Shown here: piece after piece, positions 1,831 to 12,089 of the stretch
Layout: each line of letters begins with the position of its first letter
Numbering within the stretch: position 1 is the stretch's first letter
IMG/VR virus record: IMGVR_UViG_2654587792_000016
DNA from: a virus
Lineage: Duplodnaviria; Heunggongvirae; Uroviricota; Caudoviricetes
Reading direction: 5' to 3' (one strand)
Length of the DNA stretch: 13,993 nt
The notes under the pieces: generated by a model
What the model was told of the DNA's origin: nothing
The model's database searches: none
What the model saw: the letters and a program-made list of their open reading frames with translations, nothing else
Position numbers and translations under genes: made by a program

Positions 1831-2883
1831 ATGAAAAATACTGTAAAAATAAACAGTGTTGATTTAATCAACGCTGATTGCCTGCATTTTATTCAGTCCC
1901 TGCCTGATGATTCCATTGACCTGATTGTTACCGATCCGCCGTACTTCAAGGTGAAACCCAACGGTTGGGACAATCAGTGGAAAGGGGACGAAGATTACCT
2001 TAAGTGGCTGGACCACTGTCTGGCCCAGTTCTGGCGGGTGTTAAAACCTGCCGGAAGCCTTTATCTGTTCTGTGGGCATCGCCTGGCATCTGATATTGAG
2101 ATCATGATGCGTGAACGTTTCAACGTGCTTAACCATATCATCTGGGCGAAGCCGTCCGGACGTTGGAATGGGTGTAATAAAGAAAGTCTGCGCGCATATT
2201 TTCCTGCCACAGAGCGCGTTCTGTTTGCTGAACATTACCAGGGGCCATATCGCGGCAAAAGTGACGGCTATGCAGCAAAAGAAAGGGAACTCAAACAGCA
2301 CATAATGGCACCGCTGATATCGTATTTCAGGGATGCTCGTGCCGAACTGGGTATAACGGCAAAACAAATTGCCGAAGCCACAGGTAAGAAAAATATGGTT
2401 TCCCACTGGTTTGGTGCCAGTCAGTGGCAGTTGCCGAATGAGGCTGACTATCGGAAGTTACAGGCACTGTTTTCCCGTATAGCGGCAGAGAAGTTTCAGG
2501 AACAACAACTGGAACAACCACACCACCAGCTGGTGGCATCTTATGATTCACTGAATCGCAAATATTCTGAATTGCTGGATGAGTTTAAATCTCTCCGGCG
2601 CTATTTCTCCGTATCAGTCTCCGTGCCTTATACCGATGTCTGGACGCATAAACCCGTTCAGTTCTACCCGGGTAAACATCCGTGCGAGAAACCGGCGGAT
2701 ATGCTCCGGCAAATAATCAATGCCAGTAGTCGCCCTGGTGATATGGTTGCTGATTTCTTTATGGGATCCGGTTCCACAATAAAAGCAGCAATGGCGCTGG
2801 GGCGTCGGGCGTTAGGTGTTGAACTTGAGTCAGAGCGGTTTAATCAGACGGTGAAAGAGGTAAGTGAACTGGTGGGGAAATAA
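1831..2883 (+). CDS. DNA amino-methyltransferase (N6-adenine or N4-cytosine), beta-class, apparently orphan
   Basis: 350-aa ORF. Motif IV DPPY (LIVTDPPYF) is near the N-terminus and the SAM-binding motif I (FFMGSGST) near the C-terminus, the circular permutation typical of beta-class amino-MTases (CcrM/HinfI/PvuII-like). The roughly 250-aa region between them contains an HTH-like stretch (ITAKQIAEATGKKNMVSHWF). No restriction endonuclease ORF is adjacent. Confidence 0.85.
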   Translation: MKNTVKINSVDLINADCLHFIQSLPDDSIDLIVTDPPYFKVKPNGWDNQWKGDEDYLKWLDHCLAQFWRVLKPAGSLYLFCGHRLASDIEIMMRERFNVLNHIIWAKPSGRWNGCNKESLRAYFPATERVLFAEHYQGPYRGKSDGYAAKERELKQHIMAPLISYFRDARAELGITAKQIAEATGKKNMVSHWFGASQWQLPNEADYRKLQALFSRIAAEKFQEQQLEQPHHQLVASYDSLNRKYSELLDEFKSLRRYFSVSVSVPYTDVWTHKPVQFYPGKHPCEKPADMLRQIINASSRPGDMVADFFMGSGSTIKAAMALGRRALGVELESERFNQTVKEVSELVGK

Positions 2884-2959
2884 TTCTGGTGGCCACGTTG
2901 CGTGGCCTTTTTATTTCCAACACAGCACCCGCAAATATCGCGAGGTGAGAGATGACGAA

Positions 2960-3295
2960 ATGCCTCATAACCCAAATACCTGGCCGGACTGGCTGGAGTT
3001 GTTTCAGAGCTGGTGGCGTGGAGACACGCCGCTGGGTGCAGTGATTATGTCGATCGTTATGGCTGGTTTGCGCATCGCCTATTTTGGCGGTGGTGGTGGC
3101 TGGAAGCGAAAAACGCTCGAGATTTTGCTCTGTGGCGCTCTGACGCTGACCTTTGCATCCGCTCTTGAGTATGTCGGATGGCCTAAATCACTTTCTGTTG
3201 CCATTGGTGGCGGTGTGGGGCTGATCGGTGTCGATGCTATTCGTGGGGCTGCAATGCGAGTAATCGGTAACAAGTTTGGTGGCTCTAAGGAGTAA
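2960..3295 (+). CDS. S: Holin, lambda S-like class I (three predicted transmembrane segments)
   Basis: The track ORF 2864-3295 begins at a GTG inside the MTase 3' end; the preferred start is ATG 2960 with GAGGTGAGAG at 2942-2951. The hydrophobic segments and C-terminal VGLIGVDAIRGAAMRVIGNKFGGSKE align in pattern with lambda S ([20 protein letters not shown]). It lies immediately upstream of R. Confidence 0.8.
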   Translation: MPHNPNTWPDWLELFQSWWRGDTPLGAVIMSIVMAGLRIAYFGGGGGWKRKTLEILLCGALTLTFASALEYVGWPKSLSVAIGGGVGLIGVDAIRGAAMRVIGNKFGGSKE

Positions 3296-3298
3296 TTT

Positions 3299-3775
3299 AT
3301 GCAGGTACTAAATTCCCAGCGTAAAGCTTTCCTCGATATGTTGGCGTGGTCAGAAGGAACGGATAACGGGCGACAGCCAACCCGCAATCACGGCTACGAC
3401 GTTATTGTAGGTGGTGAGTTATTCACGGATTACTCCGATCATCCTCGCAAACTTGTCACGCTAAACCCCAAACTCAAATCAACAGCCGCCGGACGTTACC
3501 AGCTTCTTTCACGCTGGTGGGATGCTTACCGTAAACAGCTTGGCCTGAAAGATTTTTCTCCAGAAAGCCAGGACGCTGTAGCTCTGCAGCAGATTAAAGA
3601 GCGTGGCGCTTTACCGATGATTGATCGCGGTGATATTCGTCAGGCTATCGACCGTTGCAGCAATATCTGGGCTTCACTACCGGGCGCTGGTTATGGTCAG
3701 TTCGAGCATAAAGTTGACAGCCTGATTGCAAAATTCAAAGAAGCAGGCGGAACGGTCAGAGAGATTGAGGTATGA
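3299..3775 (+). CDS. R: Endolysin, lambda R-type lytic transglycosylase
   Basis: 158 aa, near-identical over most of its length to lambda R as I recall it ([82 protein letters not shown]). AAGGAG at 3287-3292 precedes the start. Stop TGA 3773-3775 overlaps the Rz ATG (ATGA). Confidence 0.95.
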
Positions 3776-4239
3776 GCAGAGTAACCGCGATTATCTCCGC
3801 TCTGGTTATTTGTATCATCGCCTGCCTGTCATGGGCTGTTAATCATTACCGTGATAACGCCATCGCCTACAAAGAACAGCGTGATAAAAAAGTCAGTGAG
3901 CTGAAGCAGGCGACCGCCACCATCGCTGACATGCAGCAGCGTCAGCGTGATGTTGCTGCGATCGATGCAAAATACACGAAGGAGTTAGCCGATGCGAAAA
4001 CTGAAAATGAAACTCTGCGCGCTGATGTTGCCGCTGGTCGTAAGCGCCTGCGGGTCAATGCCAGTTGCTCCGCAGCCGTGCGTGAAGCCACCGGACCCAC
4101 CAGCATGGATAATGCAACCAGCCCCCGACTGGCAGACACCGCTGAACGGGATTATTTCACCCTCAGAGAACGGTTGATGACGATGCAGAAGCAACTGGAA
4201 GGGGCGCAGGAATATATCCGCACCCAGCGCATTAAGTAG
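3772..4239 (+). CDS. Rz: Spanin, inner-membrane subunit (Rz)
   Basis: 155 aa. The N-terminus [32 protein letters not shown] and the C-terminal [27 protein letters not shown] closely match lambda Rz. Confidence 0.95.
3992..4177 (+). CDS. Rz1: Spanin, outer-membrane lipoprotein subunit (Rz1), embedded in Rz in the +1 frame
   Basis: 61-aa ORF wholly inside Rz. Signal peptide with lipobox (LVVSAC) and the Pro-rich [30 protein letters not shown] match lambda Rz1. GGAG at 3981-3984 is 7 nt before the ATG. Confidence 0.9.
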
Positions 4240-4623
4240 ATGGAGAAAAAACACGAATCTGTGGTTTTTACTGAGCGCGGTGTACACGGTGGAACATATG
4301 GCGGGAAGTTTGTTGCTTATGATTATGCAGCATGGCTAAACCCCGGATTTAAATATGCAGCCTATAAAGTCCTGGATGACTACTTCACCGGAGAACTTCA
4401 GCATCGCAACAGCTTAAGTGCGCAGCTCAATATGAAGTGTCATGAGTTTGATCAGAAAAAAGATATGGCGAGCTTCTGTGGACAAGGGCTGGCGGCATGG
4501 CGCTATACGAAGCCAGTGTTGGTCGCTGAGATTAACTCCCTGGCTAACCAGCTGCAGATAACGATCCCCGGGCTGTCCGGTATTTGCCGGTATGAAATTA
4601 CCGGAAGGCGCGCTCGTTACTGA
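4240..4623 (+). CDS. Hypothetical protein resembling the C-terminal half of a KilA-N domain; possibly a truncated remnant
   Basis: 127-aa ORF whose ATG directly abuts the Rz stop (TAGATG). GGTYGGKFVAYDYAAWLNPGF resembles the conserved C-terminal KilA-N motif (GTWVHPDLAIHFAQWLSPEF-like) from memory. The N-terminal half of the domain is absent and no strong SD is present. Confidence 0.4.
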   Translation: MEKKHESVVFTERGVHGGTYGGKFVAYDYAAWLNPGFKYAAYKVLDDYFTGELQHRNSLSAQLNMKCHEFDQKKDMASFCGQGLAAWRYTKPVLVAEINSLANQLQITIPGLSGICRYEITGRRARY

Positions 4624-4887
4624 GTAACAGCAGGCATTACAGCAGCCCTTCACTGAGGGGCTGCGATAATGTGAGGAATAAAAAACCGGCAGGGGAAATC
4701 CATTGAAGATTTGCCGGTGGCAAAAGATGGCCATGCTTTTAACCTTAGTAGCAGAGTTACGGAGTTCAACAACGACCGTCGCCGTTATCTTGCTGAAAGG
4801 CGTTTCAATGATTTTCATCAATTTATTCATCAGCAATGGTGATAATCACTCTCATTTTGGCGGGTCCTTCCGGTGGGGTGGCCTGCC

Positions 4888-4907
4888 ACGGGGCGGGAGC
4901 GTCGCGG
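4888..4907. other. Candidate cosN (cohesive-end nicking site)
   Basis: ACG|GGGCGGGAGCGT|CGCGG at 4888-4907 against lambda ACG|GGGCGGCGACCT|CGCGG: identical flanks and 9 of 12 positions in the presumed 12-nt cohesive end. It sits about 185 bp upstream of the terminase small subunit start, as in lambda. Confidence 0.6.
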
Positions 4908-5070: not shown

Positions 5071-5086
5071 CCAGATGGAGTTGCTT

Positions 5087-5614
5087 ATGTCAAATGTGAG
5101 TGGGATCGGTGATGCTTATTACTGGAGTGTTTTTAAAATCGCCGAGGCCTTTGGGCTTCACCGGGACACAGTAAAAAAACGGCTCCTCGCGGCCAACACT
5201 CCTGTGGCTGCGACTGTCAGGGGGAACCCCGTTTACGCCCTGCAGCATGTCGGGCCAGCCCTGTTTAGTGTGAAGCATGAGGCAGCAGACTCTGTTCATG
5301 ATCCATCCCGTATGGAGCCGAAAGAGAGAAAGGACTGGTACCAGTCTGAAAATGAAAGGATCAAGCTGGAAAAGGAGCAGCGAAAACTCATCCCAGTTGA
5401 TGAAGTAGTCATCGTCTATTCGTCCATGAGAAAGGCTGTCGTCCAGGTTCTGGAGACAATTCCGGATGTTCTTGAACGCGATTGCGCCCTGACTCCTCAG
5501 GCCGTCGGCGTTGTACAGCAGGCCATTGATGACCTGCGATACACTCTTCAGGAAAAATCCTACGAGGCTTGTGCTGCTGAATTAATTCCTGATGAGGAAG
5601 GAGAGAGTCTCTAG
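5087..5614 (+). CDS. Terminase small subunit (Nu1-like DNA packaging protein)
   Basis: ORF 5075-5614; preferred start ATG 5087 with GGAG at 5077-5080. N-terminal HTH-like segment (FKIAEAFGLHRDTVKKRL), a central charged region resembling lambda Nu1, and a position between cos and the large terminase. Stop TAG 5612-5614. Confidence 0.7.
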   Translation: MSNVSGIGDAYYWSVFKIAEAFGLHRDTVKKRLLAANTPVAATVRGNPVYALQHVGPALFSVKHEAADSVHDPSRMEPKERKDWYQSENERIKLEKEQRKLIPVDEVVIVYSSMRKAVVQVLETIPDVLERDCALTPQAVGVVQQAIDDLRYTLQEKSYEACAAELIPDEEGESL

Positions 5615-5622
5615 GAGGAATA

Positions 5623-7722
5623 ATGGGTTTTTCATCAGCCCGAAATTTGGGAAGGGACATATCGGCAGGATTTTCCCCACCACGTCGCATGCCGATTTCG
5701 GAGGCTGTTAAAAAATTCATGCGTGTTCCCAAGGGGGCTGGTAACTCGGTGCCATGGGATCCTGAACTGACACCCTACATCATTGAGCCCATGAACTGCC
5801 TGGCATCGCGTGAATACGATGCGGTGATTTTTGTTGGTCCTGCGCGAACAGGGAAGACCATTGGTCTGATCGATGGATGGATTGTCTATACCATCGTTTG
5901 CGATCCTTCGGACATGCTCGTTGTGCAGATGACCGAAGATAAGGCCCGCGAGCATTCTAAAAAGCGCCTCGACAGAACGTTCAGAAGCAGTGCGGCGGTA
6001 AAGAAAAGAATGAGTCCACGTCGTAACGACAATAATGTTCATGATAAGACGTTCAGGGATGGCTCGTTCCTTAAAATTGGTTGGCCCTCGGTCAACATTA
6101 TGTCGTCGTCGGATTACCGGTTTGTCGCCTTAACCGATTACGACCGTTTTCCGGAGAATATCGACAGCGAGGGTGATGGTTTCTCCCTGGCCTCAAAACG
6201 TACCACCACATTTATGTCCGCCGGGATGACTCTGGTGGAGAGCTCGCCGGGACGTGACATCTGCGACAGCAAATGGCGACGTAAGTCGCCTCATGAAGCG
6301 CCACCGACGACTGGTATTCTTTCCCTTTACAATCGTGGTGACCGCCGCCGCTGGTACTGGCCATGTCCGCACTGCGGTGAATATTTTCAGCCAGCCATGG
6401 ATGCCATGACCGGCTACCGTAATGAACCGGATCCCTTTAAAGCCAGTGAGGCGGCGTATCTACTTTGCCCGCACTGCAGCGGCATTATCACTGCGGAGAA
6501 AAAGCGTGAGCTCAATAGTGCAGGAGTCTGGTTGCGTGAAGGTCAGGTCATTGATCGTAACGGCAACGTTTCCGGTGAACCGCGCCGCTCCCGTATCGCC
6601 AGTTTCTGGATGGAAGGGCCAGCTGCTGCGTATCAGACCTGGGCGCAACTGGTTTACAAATTACTGACTGCAGAACAGGAGTATGAAGCGACAGGAAGCG
6701 AAGAAACACTCAGGGCGGTTATCAATACCGACTGGGGATTACCTTATCTTCCCCGCGCCAGCATGGAGCAACGAAAAAGTGAACTGCTTGAGCAGCGGGC
6801 AGAGCCAGTTCCTTCCCGCAGTGTGCCGGATGGCGTTAATTTCCTTGTGGCGGCAGTGGATGTGCAGGCGGGACGTCATCGCCGTTTTGTGGTTCAGGTA
6901 ACGGGCTATGGCAGCCGTGGCGAACGCTGGATTATTGATCGTTACAACATCACGCAGTCATTGCGCGGTGACAGCGACGGGGAGAGCCAGCGAATTGATC
7001 CGGCCAGCTATCCGGAAGACTGGGATGTCCTGCTGACGGATGTTTTTCATAAAAGCTGGCCGCTGGCCTCCGATCCTTCTCAACAAATGCGACTGATGGC
7101 AATGGCGGTGGACTCCGGCGGTGAAGACGGGGTCACTGATAATGCCTATAAATTCTGGCGTCGTTGCCGTCGTGATGGCCTTGGTAAACGTATTTACCTG
7201 TTTAAGGGCGACAGCATCCGGCGCGCAAAACTGATCAGCCGTACATTCCCTGATAACACCGGACGAACGGGCCGACGGGCGCAGGCCGCAGGTGATGTGC
7301 CGCTCTGGTTTCTTCAGACGGATGCCCTGAAAGACCGGGTGAATAACGCGTTATGGCGTGACTCGCCAGGTCCCGGCTATGTGCATTTCCCTGACTGGCT
7401 GGGGAGCTGGTTTTACGACGAACTGACGTATGAAGAGCGGAGCAGTGACGGGAAATGGAGTAAACCGGGTCGCGGTGCCAACGAAGCTTTTGACCTGATG
7501 GTGTATGCCGAGGCTCTGGTCATTCTGCATGGATACGAAAAGATCCGCTGGCCGGATGCACCGGAGTGGGCGAGCCGGGAAACCTGGCTGGAGTGTGTCC
7601 CGGACAGTACCGAACCGTCACCCTCACCGGAACCGGTATCCACGCCTGTTAAAAAACAAAAACGGAAGAAAACAGTAACTGACGATGTTAACCCCTGGCT
7701 GACTTCCGGAGGATGGTTATGA
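5623..7722 (+). CDS. Terminase large subunit (lambda gpA family)
   Basis: 699 aa, AGGAGG at 5614-5619. Walker A-like VGPARTGKT, and size and position between the small terminase and gpW. Proline-rich, basic C-terminal tail (PSPSPEPVSTPVKKQKRKK). Confidence 0.9.
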   Translation: MGFSSARNLGRDISAGFSPPRRMPISEAVKKFMRVPKGAGNSVPWDPELTPYIIEPMNCLASREYDAVIFVGPARTGKTIGLIDGWIVYTIVCDPSDMLVVQMTEDKAREHSKKRLDRTFRSSAAVKKRMSPRRNDNNVHDKTFRDGSFLKIGWPSVNIMSSSDYRFVALTDYDRFPENIDSEGDGFSLASKRTTTFMSAGMTLVESSPGRDICDSKWRRKSPHEAPPTTGILSLYNRGDRRRWYWPCPHCGEYFQPAMDAMTGYRNEPDPFKASEAAYLLCPHCSGIITAEKKRELNSAGVWLREGQVIDRNGNVSGEPRRSRIASFWMEGPAAAYQTWAQLVYKLLTAEQEYEATGSEETLRAVINTDWGLPYLPRASMEQRKSELLEQRAEPVPSRSVPDGVNFLVAAVDVQAGRHRRFVVQVTGYGSRGERWIIDRYNITQSLRGDSDGESQRIDPASYPEDWDVLLTDVFHKSWPLASDPSQQMRLMAMAVDSGGEDGVTDNAYKFWRRCRRDGLGKRIYLFKGDSIRRAKLISRTFPDNTGRTGRRAQAAGDVPLWFLQTDALKDRVNNALWRDSPGPGYVHFPDWLGSWFYDELTYEERSSDGKWSKPGRGANEAFDLMVYAEALVILHGYEKIRWPDAPEWASRETWLECVPDSTEPSPSPEPVSTPVKKQKRKKTVTDDVNPWLTSGGWL

Positions 7723-7931
7723 ATCAGAATGATATTGAAGCCATGATTCAGCGTTATACGGAAGCTGAAATGGCGGTGCTGGACGGAAAATCCGTCACTT
7801 TTAATGGTCAGCAGATGACCATGGAAAACTTATCTGAGATCCGGCAGGGGCGGCAGGAGTGGGAGCGCCGCCTTGCGGCTCTGATTACACGACGACGGGG
7901 GCATCCCGGGTACCGGTTGGCGAGGTTCTGA
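7719..7931 (+). CDS. Head-tail joining protein (lambda gpW-like)
   Basis: About 70 aa. ATG 7719 overlaps the terminase stop (ATGA), with GGAGG at 7708-7712. The C-terminal RRRGHPGYR resembles the lambda W C-terminus (RRRGPAGF); synteny A-W-B. Confidence 0.75.
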   Translation: MNQNDIEAMIQRYTEAEMAVLDGKSVTFNGQQMTMENLSEIRQGRQEWERRLAALITRRRGHPGYRLARF

Positions 7932-9439
7932 TGGCAATTCTTGATGATGTGATTGGCGTTTTTTCACCAGGATGGAAAGCGGCAAGGCTGCGTTCCCGTG
8001 CGGTGATCCAGGCTTATGAGGCCGTAAAAACGACGCGGACACACAAAGCCCGACGGGAGAACCGAACTGCCGACCAGTTAAGCCAGTACGGGGCCGTGTC
8101 GTTACGTGAGCAGGCCCGTTACCTTGATAACAACCACGATCTGGTCATTGGTGTATTTGACAAGCTGGAAGAACGGGTGGTGGGGAAAAACGGGATTATT
8201 GTCGAGCCACATCCGGTATTACGCAATGGGGCCATTGCCCGTGATCTGGCAGCGGAGATACGCACCCGATGGAGTGAATGGTCTGTCAGTCCGGAAGTCA
8301 CCGGGCAGTTTACCCGTCCGATGCTGGAACGTCTGATGCTGCGTACCTGGCTGCGCGATGGTGAGGTGTTTGCCCAGATGGTTTCCGGGCGCATAAACAG
8401 CCTGACGCCTTCTGCCGGTGTTCATTTCTGGCTGGAGGCGCTCGAGCCGGACTTTATTCCCATGACCAGTGATGAGAGCAACAGGCTGAATCAGGGCGTG
8501 TTTGTTGATGACTGGGGGCGTCCCGAAAAATATCTGGTGTATAAAAGCCGTCCCGTATCCGGACGGCAGATGGAAACCAAAGAAGTGGATGCAGAGCGAA
8601 TGCTGCATCTTAAATTTGTTCGCCGTCTGCACCAGATGCGCGGGACGTCTTTATTGTCCGGTGTGCTGATCCGCCTCAGCGCCCTGAAAGAGTATGAAGA
8701 TTCTGAGCTGACTGCAGCAAGGATCGCCGCTGCTCTGGGGATGTACATCCGGAAAGGCGACGGACAGAGCTATGAAACGGATGGTAATGACAGCAAGGAG
8801 AATGAACGCGAGCTTACCATTCAGCCAGGCATTATTTACGACGATCTGAAACCCGGCGAAGAAATCGGAATGGTGAAGTCGGATCGTCCCAATCCTAACC
8901 TGGAAACTTTTCGTAATGGTCAGTTGCGTGCCGTGGCGGCGGGCAGTCGTCTGAGTTTTTCCAGTACGGCACGCAACTATAACGGCACTTACAGCGCCCA
9001 GCGTCAGGAACTGGTTGAGTCTACTGATGGCTACCTGATCCTGCAGGACTGGTTTATTGGTGCCGTCACCCGTCCGATGTATCGTGCCTGGCTGAAACAG
9101 GCTGTGGCATCCGGTGTTATCAGGCTACCCCGCGATCTTGACCGTTCTTCACTGTATACCGCGGTGTATTTCGGACCAGTGATGCCGTGGATTGACCCTG
9201 TTAAGGAGGCTGAGGCCTGGAAAATCCAGATTCGTGGTGGAGCGGCGACAGAATCAGACTGGGTACGTGCTGGTGGTCGTAATCCGGATGATGTCAAACG
9301 TCGGCGCAAGGCCGAAATTGATGAAAACCGCAAGCTGGATCTGGTATTTGATACCGATCCGGCCAGTGATAAAGGAGGCAGCAGTGCCGCAACGAAACGA
9401 CAGGAGCCGCAGCACACCGACGACCAGTCCGAAGAATAA
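7931..9439 (+). CDS. Portal protein (lambda gpB family)
   Basis: 502 aa from ATG 7931, which overlaps the gpW stop (TGATG); GAGG at 7922-7925. The track ORF from 7859 is an upstream extension. Size and synteny fit, and SLREQARY resembles lambda B SLREYAGY. Confidence 0.85.
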   Translation: MAILDDVIGVFSPGWKAARLRSRAVIQAYEAVKTTRTHKARRENRTADQLSQYGAVSLREQARYLDNNHDLVIGVFDKLEERVVGKNGIIVEPHPVLRNGAIARDLAAEIRTRWSEWSVSPEVTGQFTRPMLERLMLRTWLRDGEVFAQMVSGRINSLTPSAGVHFWLEALEPDFIPMTSDESNRLNQGVFVDDWGRPEKYLVYKSRPVSGRQMETKEVDAERMLHLKFVRRLHQMRGTSLLSGVLIRLSALKEYEDSELTAARIAAALGMYIRKGDGQSYETDGNDSKENERELTIQPGIIYDDLKPGEEIGMVKSDRPNPNLETFRNGQLRAVAAGSRLSFSSTARNYNGTYSAQRQELVESTDGYLILQDWFIGAVTRPMYRAWLKQAVASGVIRLPRDLDRSSLYTAVYFGPVMPWIDPVKEAEAWKIQIRGGAATESDWVRAGGRNPDDVKRRRKAEIDENRKLDLVFDTDPASDKGGSSAATKRQEPQHTDDQSEE

Positions 9440-9452
9440 TTCCTGGTTCAGG

Positions 9453-11411
9453 ATGCAGGCTGGTCACCAGAGTGACGCGGATATTTATATTTATGACGAG
9501 ATTGGTTTCTGGGGTGTTACAGCGAAGCAGTTTATCAGTGATCTGAATGCACTGGGCGATATCACCCACATTAATCTTCATATTAATTCACCGGGTGGCG
9601 ATGTCTTTGAAGGCATCGCCATTTTTAATGCACTGAAAACACATGGTGCGTCCATTACCGTTTATGTCGACGGTGTGGCGGCGTCAATGGCGTCGGTCAT
9701 TGCGATGGTGGGAAACCCGGTCATTATGCCGGAAAACACTTTCATGATGATTCATAAACCATTTGGCTTTACGGGCGGTGATGCGGAGGACATGCGCACC
9801 TATGCCGACCTGCTCGATAAAGTTGAGGCGGTTCTGTTACCCGCTTATGCACAGAAAACCGGGAAAACCACCGATGAAATTGCTGCCATGCTGGCGGATG
9901 AGACCTGGATGTCCGGTGCCGAATGTCTGGCACATGGATTTGCTGATCAGGTAACGCCAGCCGTTAAGGCAATGGCATGTATTCAGTCAAAACGTACAGA
10001 GGAATTTAAAAAGATGCCGGAATCCATTCGAAACATGATTACTCCGCCACGCAACAGTGCTCCACGCGTACAGGATGATGAACCTGCAGCCTCCCGGACG
10101 CCAGTGCAGGCAGCAGCACCCGTGGTGGATGAAAACAGTATCCGTGCGCAGGTACTGGCAGAGCAAAAAGCGCGTGTAAACGGTATTAATGATCTGTTTG
10201 CCATGTTTGGCGGGCGTTATCAGACGCTGCAGGCTCAGTGTCTTGCCGATCCTGAATGTTCGCTGGAGCAGGCCCGCGAAAAGCTGTTGAACGAGATGGG
10301 GCGCGAGTCCACGCCATCCAATAAAAATACCCCGGCTCATATTTATGCCGGTAACGGTAATTTTGTGGGGGACGGGATCCGCCAGGCGCTGATGGCGCGT
10401 GCCGGATTTGAAAAAACCGAACGTGATAATGTCTACAACGGGATGACCCTGCGTGAATATGCCCGTATGTCACTGACTGAACGGGGTATTGGGGTTTCCG
10501 GTTATAACCCGATGCAGATGGTCGGTGCGGCGTTCACACACAGTACGTCTGACTTCGGTAATATTCTGCTGGATGTTGCGAACAAAGCCATTCTGCAGGG
10601 CTGGGAAGATGCCCCTGAAACCTATGAACAGTGGACGCGGAAAGGTCAGTTGTCTGATTTTAAAATTGCCCATCGTGTGGGTATGGGGGGCTTCAGTGCT
10701 CTGCGTCAGGTGCGTGAAGGGGCGGAATATAAATACGTCACCACCGGAGATAAACAGGCCACTATTGCACTGGCGACCTATGGCGAGCTGTTCAGTATCA
10801 CCCGTCAGGCCATTATCAATGATGATCTGAATATGCTGACCGATGTCCCGATGAAACTGGGCCGTGCGGCGAAATCCACCATTGCCGATCTGGTTTATGC
10901 CATTCTGACGTCTAACCCGAAAATCTCCACAGATAATGTAAGTCTGTTCGATAAAGCGAAACATGCAAACGTACTGGAGAGCGCTGCAATGGACGTGGCA
11001 TCGCTGGATAAAGCCCGCCAGTTGATGCGCGTTCAGAAAGAGGGGGAGCGTCATCTGAATATTCGTCCTGCGTTCGTACTGGTACCGACGGCGATGGAGT
11101 CTGTTGCTAACCAGGTCATTCGCTCCTCAAGTGTCAAGGGGGCTGACATTAACGCCGGTATTATTAACCCGGTGAAAGATTTTGCGACCGTTATTGCAGA
11201 GCCTCGTCTTGATGATAACAGCCAGACCACCTTCTACCTGGCTGCGTCCAAAGGCTCCGATACGATTGAAGTGGCTTATCTCAACGGTGTGGATACGCCA
11301 TATATTGATCAGATGGAGGGCTTCAGTGTGGATGGCGTGACAACGAAAGTGCGTATTGACGCCGGTGTCGCGCCAGTTGATCACCGCGGTCTGGTGAAAT
11401 GTACGGCGTAA
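9453..11411 (+). CDS. Fused head maturation protease (ClpP/S14-like) - scaffold - major capsid protein, a tripartite capsid gene
   Basis: 652 aa from ATG 9453; the track ORF from 9192 overlaps the portal in another frame. The N-terminal roughly 170 aa is ClpP-like (IYIYDEIGFWGV, INSPGGDVFEG, catalytic-Ser context GVAASMAS, His context MIHKP). The middle is a charged, Ala/Gln-rich linker; the C-terminal roughly 300 aa is capsid-like. The domain boundaries are estimates. Weak SD. Confidence 0.85.
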   Translation: MQAGHQSDADIYIYDEIGFWGVTAKQFISDLNALGDITHINLHINSPGGDVFEGIAIFNALKTHGASITVYVDGVAASMASVIAMVGNPVIMPENTFMMIHKPFGFTGGDAEDMRTYADLLDKVEAVLLPAYAQKTGKTTDEIAAMLADETWMSGAECLAHGFADQVTPAVKAMACIQSKRTEEFKKMPESIRNMITPPRNSAPRVQDDEPAASRTPVQAAAPVVDENSIRAQVLAEQKARVNGINDLFAMFGGRYQTLQAQCLADPECSLEQAREKLLNEMGRESTPSNKNTPAHIYAGNGNFVGDGIRQALMARAGFEKTERDNVYNGMTLREYARMSLTERGIGVSGYNPMQMVGAAFTHSTSDFGNILLDVANKAILQGWEDAPETYEQWTRKGQLSDFKIAHRVGMGGFSALRQVREGAEYKYVTTGDKQATIALATYGELFSITRQAIINDDLNMLTDVPMKLGRAAKSTIADLVYAILTSNPKISTDNVSLFDKAKHANVLESAAMDVASLDKARQLMRVQKEGERHLNIRPAFVLVPTAMESVANQVIRSSSVKGADINAGIINPVKDFATVIAEPRLDDNSQTTFYLAASKGSDTIEVAYLNGVDTPYIDQMEGFSVDGVTTKVRIDAGVAPVDHRGLVKCTA

Positions 11412-11434
11412 ACGTCGCAGACAACAACTCTGAT

Positions 11435-11454
11435 GGCCCGTAAGGGCTTTTTTT
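11435..11454 (+). terminator. Short-stem intrinsic terminator after the capsid gene, probably partial
   Basis: GCCC (11436-11439), GTAA tetraloop, GGGC (11444-11447), then seven Ts (11448-11454). A 4-5-bp stem would allow read-through into the downstream head genes. Confidence 0.4.
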
Positions 11455-11497
11455 GTACCTGAAATCAGCCCCTGAACGGGGCTGTGCGGAGACAGTT

Positions 11498-11821
11498 ATG
11501 GCAAAGAATTTTGTAGAAGAAGGAAAAACGGTGGCGATTGTTGCCAGTGCAGCCATCAGCAGCGGAGATCTGGTGCAGGTGGGTGATGTTTTTGCGGTGG
11601 CGCTGACCGATATTCCACAGGGTGAAACAGGCGACGGCATGACCGAAGGTGTGTTTATCCTGCCTAAACTGAAAACGGATGACATGAAAACGGGTAAGAA
11701 GGTTTATCTGAAGTCCGGAAAAGTTCAGCTGACTAACAGCGGCTCTGATCCGCTGGTCGGGGTTGTCTGGGCAGATGCCGGAACCAGTGCAGAAGAAGTG
11801 CCGGTAAAACTCAATGTCTGA
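11498..11821 (+). CDS. DUF2190-like small head protein (putative decoration or cement protein)
   Basis: 107 aa from ATG 11498 with GGAG at 11487-11490; the track ORF starts at an upstream TTG. The motif pattern (GKTVAIVASAAISSGDLVQVGDVFAVAL...GVFILPK) is typical of the DUF2190 family found next to capsid genes. Stop TGA 11819-11821 overlaps the next ATG. Confidence 0.65.
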   Translation: MAKNFVEEGKTVAIVASAAISSGDLVQVGDVFAVALTDIPQGETGDGMTEGVFILPKLKTDDMKTGKKVYLKSGKVQLTNSGSDPLVGVVWADAGTSAEEVPVKLNV

Positions 11822-12089
11822 TCCCTTTTCCCGGCTGGCAGCGCGTATGGATGCGATCACGGTCAGAAAGATGGGAAAGACAGCCTCGATTAATGATGTC
11901 GATATGGCTGTGATCCCGGGCGAAACACTGGCAGAACTGAATGCTCTGTCCGGACCTGCGGTCTCTCTGGTGGTGTTTTCTTCGGGATACCGCCCACGGC
12001 GCGGGGATCGCGTTGTTTATGACGGACAACAATGGACGGTCACACGGCATGAACGTTTTAACGGTAAGCCAATGATCTTTATTGAGTAA
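11814..12089 (+). CDS. Head-tail connector / head completion protein (lambda gpFII-like)
   Basis: 91 aa. PRRGDRVVYDGQQWTV resembles the lambda FII C-terminal region (RRGDTLTIGEENFWV). It sits immediately upstream of the Z- and U-like genes. Confidence 0.65.
   Translation: MSDPFSRLAARMDAITVRKMGKTASINDVDMAVIPGETLAELNALSGPAVSLVVFSSGYRPRRGDRVVYDGQQWTVTRHERFNGKPMIFIE

Follow-up and report, generated by a model that had tools for sequence, protein, structure and literature searches.

The subject of this study is the head gene carried by a 13,993-nucleotide (nt) stretch of viral DNA (IMG/VR virus record IMGVR_UViG_2654587792_000016, Caudoviricetes), which as a whole is called the window. The gene is an open reading frame (ORF) in which a ClpP-like protease, a linker, a scaffold-like helical domain and a major capsid protein are joined. 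It very likely encodes the head shell of a lambdoid prophage of E. coli that belongs to the cdtI/mEp460 group. It is a member of the known Gifsy-2-type fusion family and probably has two nested products, the shorter of which would be a scaffold-capsid protein. This type of fusion gene is already known, curated, very common and ordinary. Judged by sequence comparison, the parts that might be new are a corrected start of the long product and a nested scaffold-capsid product that recurs in a second fusion family. Residues are numbered in the 652-amino-acid (aa) form, which begins at ATG 9453, unless the 675-aa form, which begins at GTG 9384 (+23), is named. The features of the gene and its Shine-Dalgarno (SD) sites, with free energies given as dG, are the following.

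9372..9378, + strand: SD site AAGGAGG for the 675-aa product, with a 5-nt spacer to GTG 9384 (dG -11.6)
9384..11411, + strand: full-length head gene ORF, 675 aa, with ClpP-like protease, linker, scaffold-like helical domain and major capsid protein (NF045540, PHROG 133)
9477..9956, + strand: ClpP-like (S14-type) prohead protease domain (NF045542, Pfam CLP_protease, solved ClpPs)
9684..9686, + strand: codon of the catalytic Ser, Ser78 (Ser101 in the 675-aa form), placed by ClpP alignment and kept in 80 of 81 homologues
9753..9755, + strand: codon of the catalytic His, His101 (His124 in the 675-aa form), placed by ClpP alignment and kept in 82 of 82 homologues
9900..9902, + strand: Glu150 (Glu173 in the 675-aa form), aligned to the catalytic Asp of ClpP (1y7o); Glu in 79 of 82 homologues
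9999..10003, + strand: internal SD-like GAGGA (core AGGA 10000-10003), 10 nt before ATG 10014; AGGA in 62 of 63 homologues
10014..11411, + strand: predicted nested ORF, 465 aa, scaffold and capsid without protease, beginning Met-Pro, with conserved ATG and SD
10044..10133, + strand: variable Pro/Ala-rich, partly charged linker, aa 198-227 (conservation 0.29-0.37; indels after residue 213; no Pfam match)
10134..10313, + strand: conserved helical scaffold-like central domain, aa 228-287 (conservation 0.50-0.66)
10506..11399, + strand: major capsid protein domain of the Mu gpT / Phage_capsid_4 type, assigned to the HK97 fold (Pfam PF25209, PF10124)

The evidence for a nested product lies at ATG 10014, which encodes Met188 (Met211 in the 675-aa form) about 20 residues past the protease domain, within the motif SKRxEEFxxMP and thus at the protease/scaffold boundary. 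The comparison set consisted of 80 homologous loci from different species, whose identities ranged from 51 to 99%, together with the window, Gifsy-2, mEp213 and CF165a. Dereplication at 95% identity gave 63 members, which were used for the counts of internal SD sites, for folding and for SD dG values. A first scan of viral contigs contained only loci that were 99-100% identical and was not used for the comparative tests. Position 10014 was ATG in all 84 sequences, and the next residue was Pro in all 84. The AGGA at 10000-10003 was the most conserved SD-like 4-mer of the gene; the runner-up was the SD of GTG 9384. When in-frame ATGs were compared at a threshold of dG <= -5, an SD was found for 63 of 63 boundary ATGs versus 10% of the 1428 other in-frame ATGs.

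Codon choice at the AGGA was equally uniform. Codon 183 was GAG in all 67 cases in which it encoded Glu, against 25.9 expected from the GAG/GAA usage of the same genes, and where it encoded Lys or Gln it was AAG or CAG, that is, always G-ending. The control for G-ending codons was a group of 65 alignment columns rich in Glu/Lys/Gln codons and sharing the same phylogeny, among which codon 183 was the only column that ended in G throughout (62/62). The median of these columns was 45%, and the next highest were two codons inside the upstream SD (87 and 83%). Moreover, mRNA folding in 41-nt windows across the 63 homologues placed the least structured part of the gene at 9990-10035 (mean dG -2.6 to -3.7 vs. 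-7.8, standard deviation 1.8). The minimum of synonymous-codon entropy of the gene was found at 9981-10008 (0.52-0.70 vs. a mean of 0.888, standard deviation 0.063). To judge from these patterns, the conservation of AGGA acts at the nucleotide level, through synonymous as well as non-synonymous codon choice. An in-frame internal start with a ribosome-binding site, of the lambda C/Nu3 type, is found downstream of the protease domain. Given this conserved internal start signal, two nested proteins are probably made from this gene, like those of lambda C/Nu3, and the start at 10014 itself is rather likely to be functional. The literature searched, which did not cover the primary Gifsy-2 paper, nowhere mentioned internal initiation for genes of this type.

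Two other candidates were tried in the same region and gene. A programmed frameshift at T TTA AAA AAG (TTTAAAAAG), which adjoins the SD-like motif, was rejected because the heptamer is not conserved in the family, unlike AGGA and ATG. An internal start for a product with the major capsid protein only was also rejected, as the gene has no other conserved SD-like site.

Similar signals were found in a sister family, NF045541 ('prohead protease/major capsid protein fusion protein', scaf_prot_MCP2), which has a non-ClpP protease domain at its N-terminus. The protein of the window scored 402 bits against NF045541, under the cut-off of 525, and the homology of this family to the head gene was confined to the region from the Met-Pro boundary onward. 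The sample consisted of 36 full-length NF045541 sequences (an ORF of Ralstonia phage YO122_2 and 35 relatives), whose identities ranged from 38 to 98%. In the Ralstonia phage, the boundary (L168:1985-2012) reads GAGAGGAAAACACC-ATG-CCT. The boundary Met was present in 35 of the 36 sequences, and the residues before it were diverse, including REENT, RKDNT, IKEND, LKELS, QEHQR and others. Among 20 distinct boundary ATG contexts, 18 had an SD with dG <= -5 (median -6.25), versus 12% of 278 other in-frame ATGs. The retention of SD and ATG in NF045541 argues that the scaffold-capsid unit is a module with its own ribosome-binding site, which has been joined to different proteases, and these comparisons suggest that nested initiation may be general for protease-scaffold-capsid fusions.

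Several points weigh against this reading of the gene as a whole. The upstream SD is far stronger than the internal one (dG -11.6 vs. -6.0), so that the long form may dominate. The Glu-Glu/Asp-Phe motif is conserved as protein, and part of the SD-like signal thus comes from coding sequence. The case for the use of ATG 10014 is comparative. In addition, the AlphaFold2 (AF2) model of the 675-aa protein, for which the alignment held 16 sequences at least 75% identical, was unusable, with a mean predicted local distance difference test (pLDDT) score of 35.5 and a predicted template modelling (pTM) score of 0.22, and only the helices of the central domain reached pLDDT values of 59-78; the fold assignments, including that of the HK97 fold, therefore come from sequence profiles only. 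Finally, the central domain resembles lambda Nu3 only weakly: in an hhalign comparison with lambda gpC, it had a weak collinear match to the C-terminal (Nu3) part at a probability of 18%, which is a hint and not evidence.

The strongest alternative, in our estimate an unlikely one, is that the gene has a single product. All coat subunits would then be the full-length chain, and the conservation of AGGA and ATG at 10000-10016 would have some other cause, for example a protein constraint on EEFxxMP, an SD-like pause that aids folding of the protease, or an RNA-processing site. The stronger SD of the upstream start and the conservation of SKRxEEFxxMP as protein are in keeping with it. Moreover, the Met codons M99 and M525 are likewise invariant, no source names a 465-aa product, and the term 'tripartite capsid gene', plainly read, means one chain per subunit. 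However, selection on the protein cannot account for a codon 183 that ends in G across Glu, Lys and Gln (62/62, the sole such column among 65), and it leaves the minima of synonymous diversity and mRNA structure unexplained. The sister family, with different upstream residues, also keeps SD and ATG at the same boundary. Two nested products thus remain the preferred reading.

From the sequence comparisons, the long product almost certainly starts at GTG 9384 (675 aa) and not at ATG 9453. The + strand ORF from ATG 9453 to the stop ending at 11411 has no internal stop and encodes 652 aa, and a preliminary description of this DNA had taken it as a single polypeptide. The unbroken frame is real, but its start is probably GTG 9384, and a second, nested product is probable. 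The SD of GTG 9384 is the second strongest in the window, behind that of the major tail gene. In the aligned column, 52 of 64 homologues carried a start codon, GTG or ATG (median SD dG -8.4), and the PHROG profiles extended upstream of 9453 when the longer protein was the query. The Met1 of a stand-alone protease of Vibrio phage K231 aligned with the first residue of the 675-aa form (MPNKT...NWYRIN vs. MPQRN...NSWFRMQ). Furthermore, at least 1000 contigs carried the exact 675-aa protein, compared with 71 for the 652-aa version. Because of SD strength, conservation among homologues, the K231 alignment and these contig counts, the head gene is placed at 9384-11411. Its start overlaps the portal gene by 56 nt, in another frame. 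The annotated start varies among records: the protein has 652 aa in phage cdtI, 675 aa in the annotation of the Prokaryotic Genome Annotation Pipeline (PGAP) and 696 aa in the Gifsy-2 record.

That the 652-aa form is exact, with translation from ATG 9453 and perhaps re-initiation after the portal stop at 9439, is very improbable. This ATG is only 13 nt past the portal stop, it is the annotated start in phage cdtI and on the 71 contigs, and the NF045540 model begins close to its residue. However, ATG 9453 lacks an SD (dG -2.2) and lies in locally structured mRNA (fold -9.8). The aligned codon was ATG in only 48 of 79 homologues and encoded Ile, Leu or Phe in the other 31, including Gifsy-2 and a Pseudomonas phage, in both of which the residue aligned to 'Met1' is Ile. 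Upstream of 9453, an SW(F/Y) motif was conserved, with Trp two codons upstream in 78 of 79 homologues and Phe or Tyr next to it in all 79, and both the PHROG profiles and the stand-alone protease align further upstream.

The fusion itself belongs to a curated family. The protein scored 985.9 bits against NCBIfam NF045540 ('ClpP-like prohead protease/major capsid protein fusion protein', Gifsy-2 type), whose cut-off is 475, and aa 9-651 were aligned to positions 2-651 of the 652-position model. PHROG 133 also matched over the full length. The preliminary description had pointed to a tripartite gene of Gifsy-2-type heads. This comparison was correct, as the two proteins are 70% identical over their whole length (461 of 662 residues) and the neighbouring cement gene is 61% identical. 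The fusion feature was already known. The DNA identity of the head gene to its counterparts was 98.6-99.6% in cdtI, mEp460, Ayreon, Tritos, HannyBb, phi458 and other phages, and above 99% in the first three. The gene was present in 2125 of 5426 complete E. coli genomes (about 39%), in which PGAP names the product as a fusion. Neither a frameshift nor a stop splits the ORF into separate protease and capsid genes: it was uninterrupted in 2003 complete E. coli genomes and at the 80 loci of different species, and the single ORF is therefore not a sequencing artefact. The idea that the fusion arose through a sequencing or assembly error, or in a decayed prophage whose lost stop merged a protease gene with a capsid gene, has next to no probability and is effectively refuted, for although related ClpP-like prohead proteases do occur as stand-alone genes before a separate capsid gene (Vibrio phage K231), the same unbroken ORF is found in isolated plaque-forming phages and in these genomes and loci, down to 51% identity, and a curated model covers the fusion.

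The N-terminal domain is a relative of ClpP, as had been proposed from its recognisable Ser and His contexts. Pfam CLP_protease matched aa 23-168 (E 4.5e-36), and the protease-only model NF045542 (Clp_rel_HeadMat) matched aa 9-167 with 215.8 bits against a cut-off of 120. A phmmer search of PDB sequences gave 107 matches at E <= 0.01; all 60 of those listed were ClpP subunits, and the top match among them was 1y7o (E 3.9e-16). In these alignments, GVAAS78MAS fell on the catalytic Ser of solved ClpPs and MMIH101KP on their catalytic His. The third member of the triad is probably Glu150, next to which Asp149 was variable among homologues, and the pattern suggests that this prohead protease family uses a Ser-His-Glu arrangement. 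All models of cellular ClpP scored below their cut-offs (the best 79.6 bits vs. 249; TIGR00493 59.7 vs. 308.6). The protein is thus a ClpP relative and not a ClpP orthologue, and labels such as 'Clp protease ClpP' are misleading. A test for a lambda-type S49/SppA protease also failed (TIGR00706 SppA_dom, 22.3 bits vs. a cut-off of 155), and the labels 'protease C' and 'Nu3' in phage records describe function by analogy only. In Vibrio phage K231 (L167:2423-4349), the stand-alone ClpP-like prohead protease has 240 aa and is 43% identical, and the capsid gene 3' of it has no detectable similarity to the head gene of the window. This arrangement indicates that the protease module pairs with unrelated coat proteins.

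Column conservation divides the remainder of the protein. The protease part, to about aa 187, had values of 0.63-0.92. The segment beyond the Met-Pro boundary that had been described as a charged linker is indeed partly charged, but it is also rich in Pro and Ala and variable. The scaffold-like domain is followed by a short variable segment with an indel (aa 288-297, conservation 0.51), and from aa 298 (about 10344) the sequence, which includes the capsid domain, is highly conserved, mostly at 0.6-0.95. From this profile, the N-terminus of the mature coat protein is guessed to lie near aa 285-297. The capsid-like nature of the C-terminal region was borne out by Pfam Phage_capsid_4 (PF25209), which matched aa 352-649 with E 8.3e-55, by a secondary match to Mu-like gpT (PF10124), and by matches of the family profile to the solved Mu-gpT-type capsid proteins 8rkc/8rkx (E 2e-10) and 9jod. 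The observation of both domains in one ORF is well outside what chance would give.

By analogy with Gifsy-2, HK97 and lambda, expression and assembly may proceed as follows. Translation from GTG 9384 would give the 675-aa protease-linker-scaffold-capsid chain, and ribosomes most likely also initiate at the SD and ATG 10014, which would give a protease-free scaffold-capsid protein of 465 aa. Such nesting would follow lambda C/Nu3, except that the coat protein would remain part of the product. Both forms would co-assemble on the portal through their shared scaffold-capsid part, forming a prohead that encloses protease and scaffold. All of the chain before the capsid domain would then be cut away by the protease, probably around the variable aa 285-297, and self-processing of the fusion protein is likewise proposed by this analogy. 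The shell would expand on DNA packaging, after which trimers of the downstream cement protein would bind. If both starts are used as their conservation suggests, the ratio of the two, and not a strict 1:1 covalent linkage, may set the amount of protease per prohead.

Among known systems, the closest one with structural and biochemical data is Gifsy-2, for which Effantin et al. (2010; Virology 402:355) are cited in PMC12315714 for exactly this fusion. The parts of the literature consulted describe self-processing to the mature coat protein, a T=7 shell and trimeric decoration for Gifsy-2 only, and the system in the window is known from its sequence. The Gifsy-2 gene (STM1034.3n, of the STM1033 / STM1034.3n tripartite gene) has the same domain order, lies between a lambda-family portal gene and a 107-aa cement gene, and shares the internal GAGGAG...ATG. 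Its differences are the host, the sequence and length of the linker, and the longer annotated N-terminus (696 aa). In the NF045540 members cdtI, mEp460, Ayreon, Tritos, HannyBb and phi458, the head gene is essentially the same, and the records of this group disagree on the start (652 or 675 aa) and on the name (protease, Nu3, C, major head protein). A paper on Pseudomonas phage MD8 and related phages describes the same three-in-one gene, as one gene with one protein (PMC8508860). The gp5 proteins of Pseudomonas phages MD8, F10 and CF165a, from a different host clade, have the same architecture at 56% identity, with an internal CAGGAG...ATG.

Nested protease/scaffold genes are documented for lambda (C/Nu3), herpes simplex virus 1 (HSV-1; UL26/UL26.5) and HFTV1 (gp17/gp17.5, by ribosome profiling, Ribo-seq). 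Similar to the system in the window, lambda has a protease gene from which the scaffold is made through an in-frame internal start, a portal and terminase of the same family, and a trimeric cement protein. Different from it, however, the lambda protease is of the S49 type and not of the ClpP S14 type, and the coat protein E is encoded by a separate gene, is unrelated in sequence and is not cleaved. In addition, D sits between Nu3 and E and belongs to a family other than Phage_cement_2, and the Nu3 start lies inside the region of the protease fold, whereas the start here comes after the protease domain. The predicted 465-aa product is organised like gp5 of HK97, in which an N-terminal scaffold domain that is removed by the protease precedes the HK97-fold shell. 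In HK97, however, the protease gp4 is encoded by a separate gene and belongs to another fold family, and covalent chainmail takes the place of a cement protein.

The window is a lambdoid late region, and its other features are listed below.

31-507: Q-like antiterminator
556-1200: ORF of unknown function, low guanine-cytosine (GC) content, 214 aa, PHROG 8498
1831-2883: DNA methyltransferase, 350 aa, between the Q region and the lysis cassette
2864-4239: holin, endolysin, Rz
4240-4623: Rha-like gene
5075-5614: TerS
5623-7722: TerL, GpA type
7713-7931: W-like adaptor
7931..9439, + strand: portal gene, lambda family, the last 56 nt of which overlap the head gene (Pfam Phage_portal_2, E 5e-82; PHROG 21)
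11435..11457, + strand: terminator-like GC hairpin (GGCCCGTAAGGGC) and T-run, 24 nt past the head gene stop and before the cement gene
11498..11821, + strand: head decoration (cement) gene, 107 aa (Pfam Phage_cement_2, E 1.3e-20; PHROG 122; 61% identical to Gifsy-2 STM1034)
11814-12089: 91-aa protein, Pfam PF13856 'Gifsy-2', in the position of lambda FII (head-tail joining), with a weak Phage_attach match

The preliminary description had placed the head gene in a lambda-like gene order and had regarded this as evidence of module mosaicism. The order of TerS, TerL, adaptor, portal and head genes, followed by Z/U/V-like tail genes, is lambda-like. The decoration gene, however, comes after the capsid gene and is of the Phage_cement_2 type and not gpD; a BLAST comparison of the decoration protein with lambda gpD gave no similarity (E 0.48). 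As for mosaicism, the block from terminase to tail was 95-99% identical to those of cdtI and mEp460-type phages. It travels as one coherent module of the cdtI/mEp460/Gifsy-2 type, and the window alone therefore gives little evidence of recent mosaicism. With this and the qualifications on start and products, the preliminary interpretation is supported.

The first 1500 nt of the window, just 3' of the Q-like antiterminator, had a GC content of 0.38-0.40 compared with 0.50-0.55 elsewhere, and this stretch with the ORF 556-1200 looks like an accessory or 'moron' insertion. The 143-aa ORF at 2864-3295 overlaps the end of the methyltransferase gene, and the holin profile matched only its residues 32-142, which makes the start of the holin doubtful. 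The linear record of phage cdtI begins at position 4891 of the window (GGGGCGGGAGCG...), in a gene-free stretch of 450 nt upstream of TerS. The site at about 4885-4905 is probably cos, differing from the cos of lambda and mEp213; a pattern search for a cos sequence of the lambda/mEp213 type gave no match at the expected place in the window. A site equivalent to the hairpin at 11435-11457 is annotated as a rho-independent terminator in mEp213, and in the late operon the hairpin could reduce transcription or make the mRNA more stable. The description of PF13856 as 'ATP-binding sugar transporter from pro-phage' is probably a misnomer. Four ORFs that overlap the head gene or are antisense to it, 10470-11054(-), 9987-10340(-), 11323-11685(-) and 10489-10830(+), had no PHROG match.

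These results bear on how head genes of this type are recognised and annotated. A search for an HK97-fold capsid protein in Gifsy-2 came up empty (PMC8814770), and tools that seek a stand-alone capsid gene can miss fusion genes of the Gifsy-2 type. In many records the gene is called 'ClpP', 'protease C' or 'Nu3', or 'major head protein' and nothing more, and in many the start is probably 69 nt too far downstream. If the internal start is functional, the model for this family would shift from a protease on every subunit to a tunable system of two products, which would offer a genetically testable case of protease dosage control in prohead assembly. The nested protease-scaffold scheme of lambda, HSV-1 and HFTV1 would then extend to genes that also hold the coat protein.

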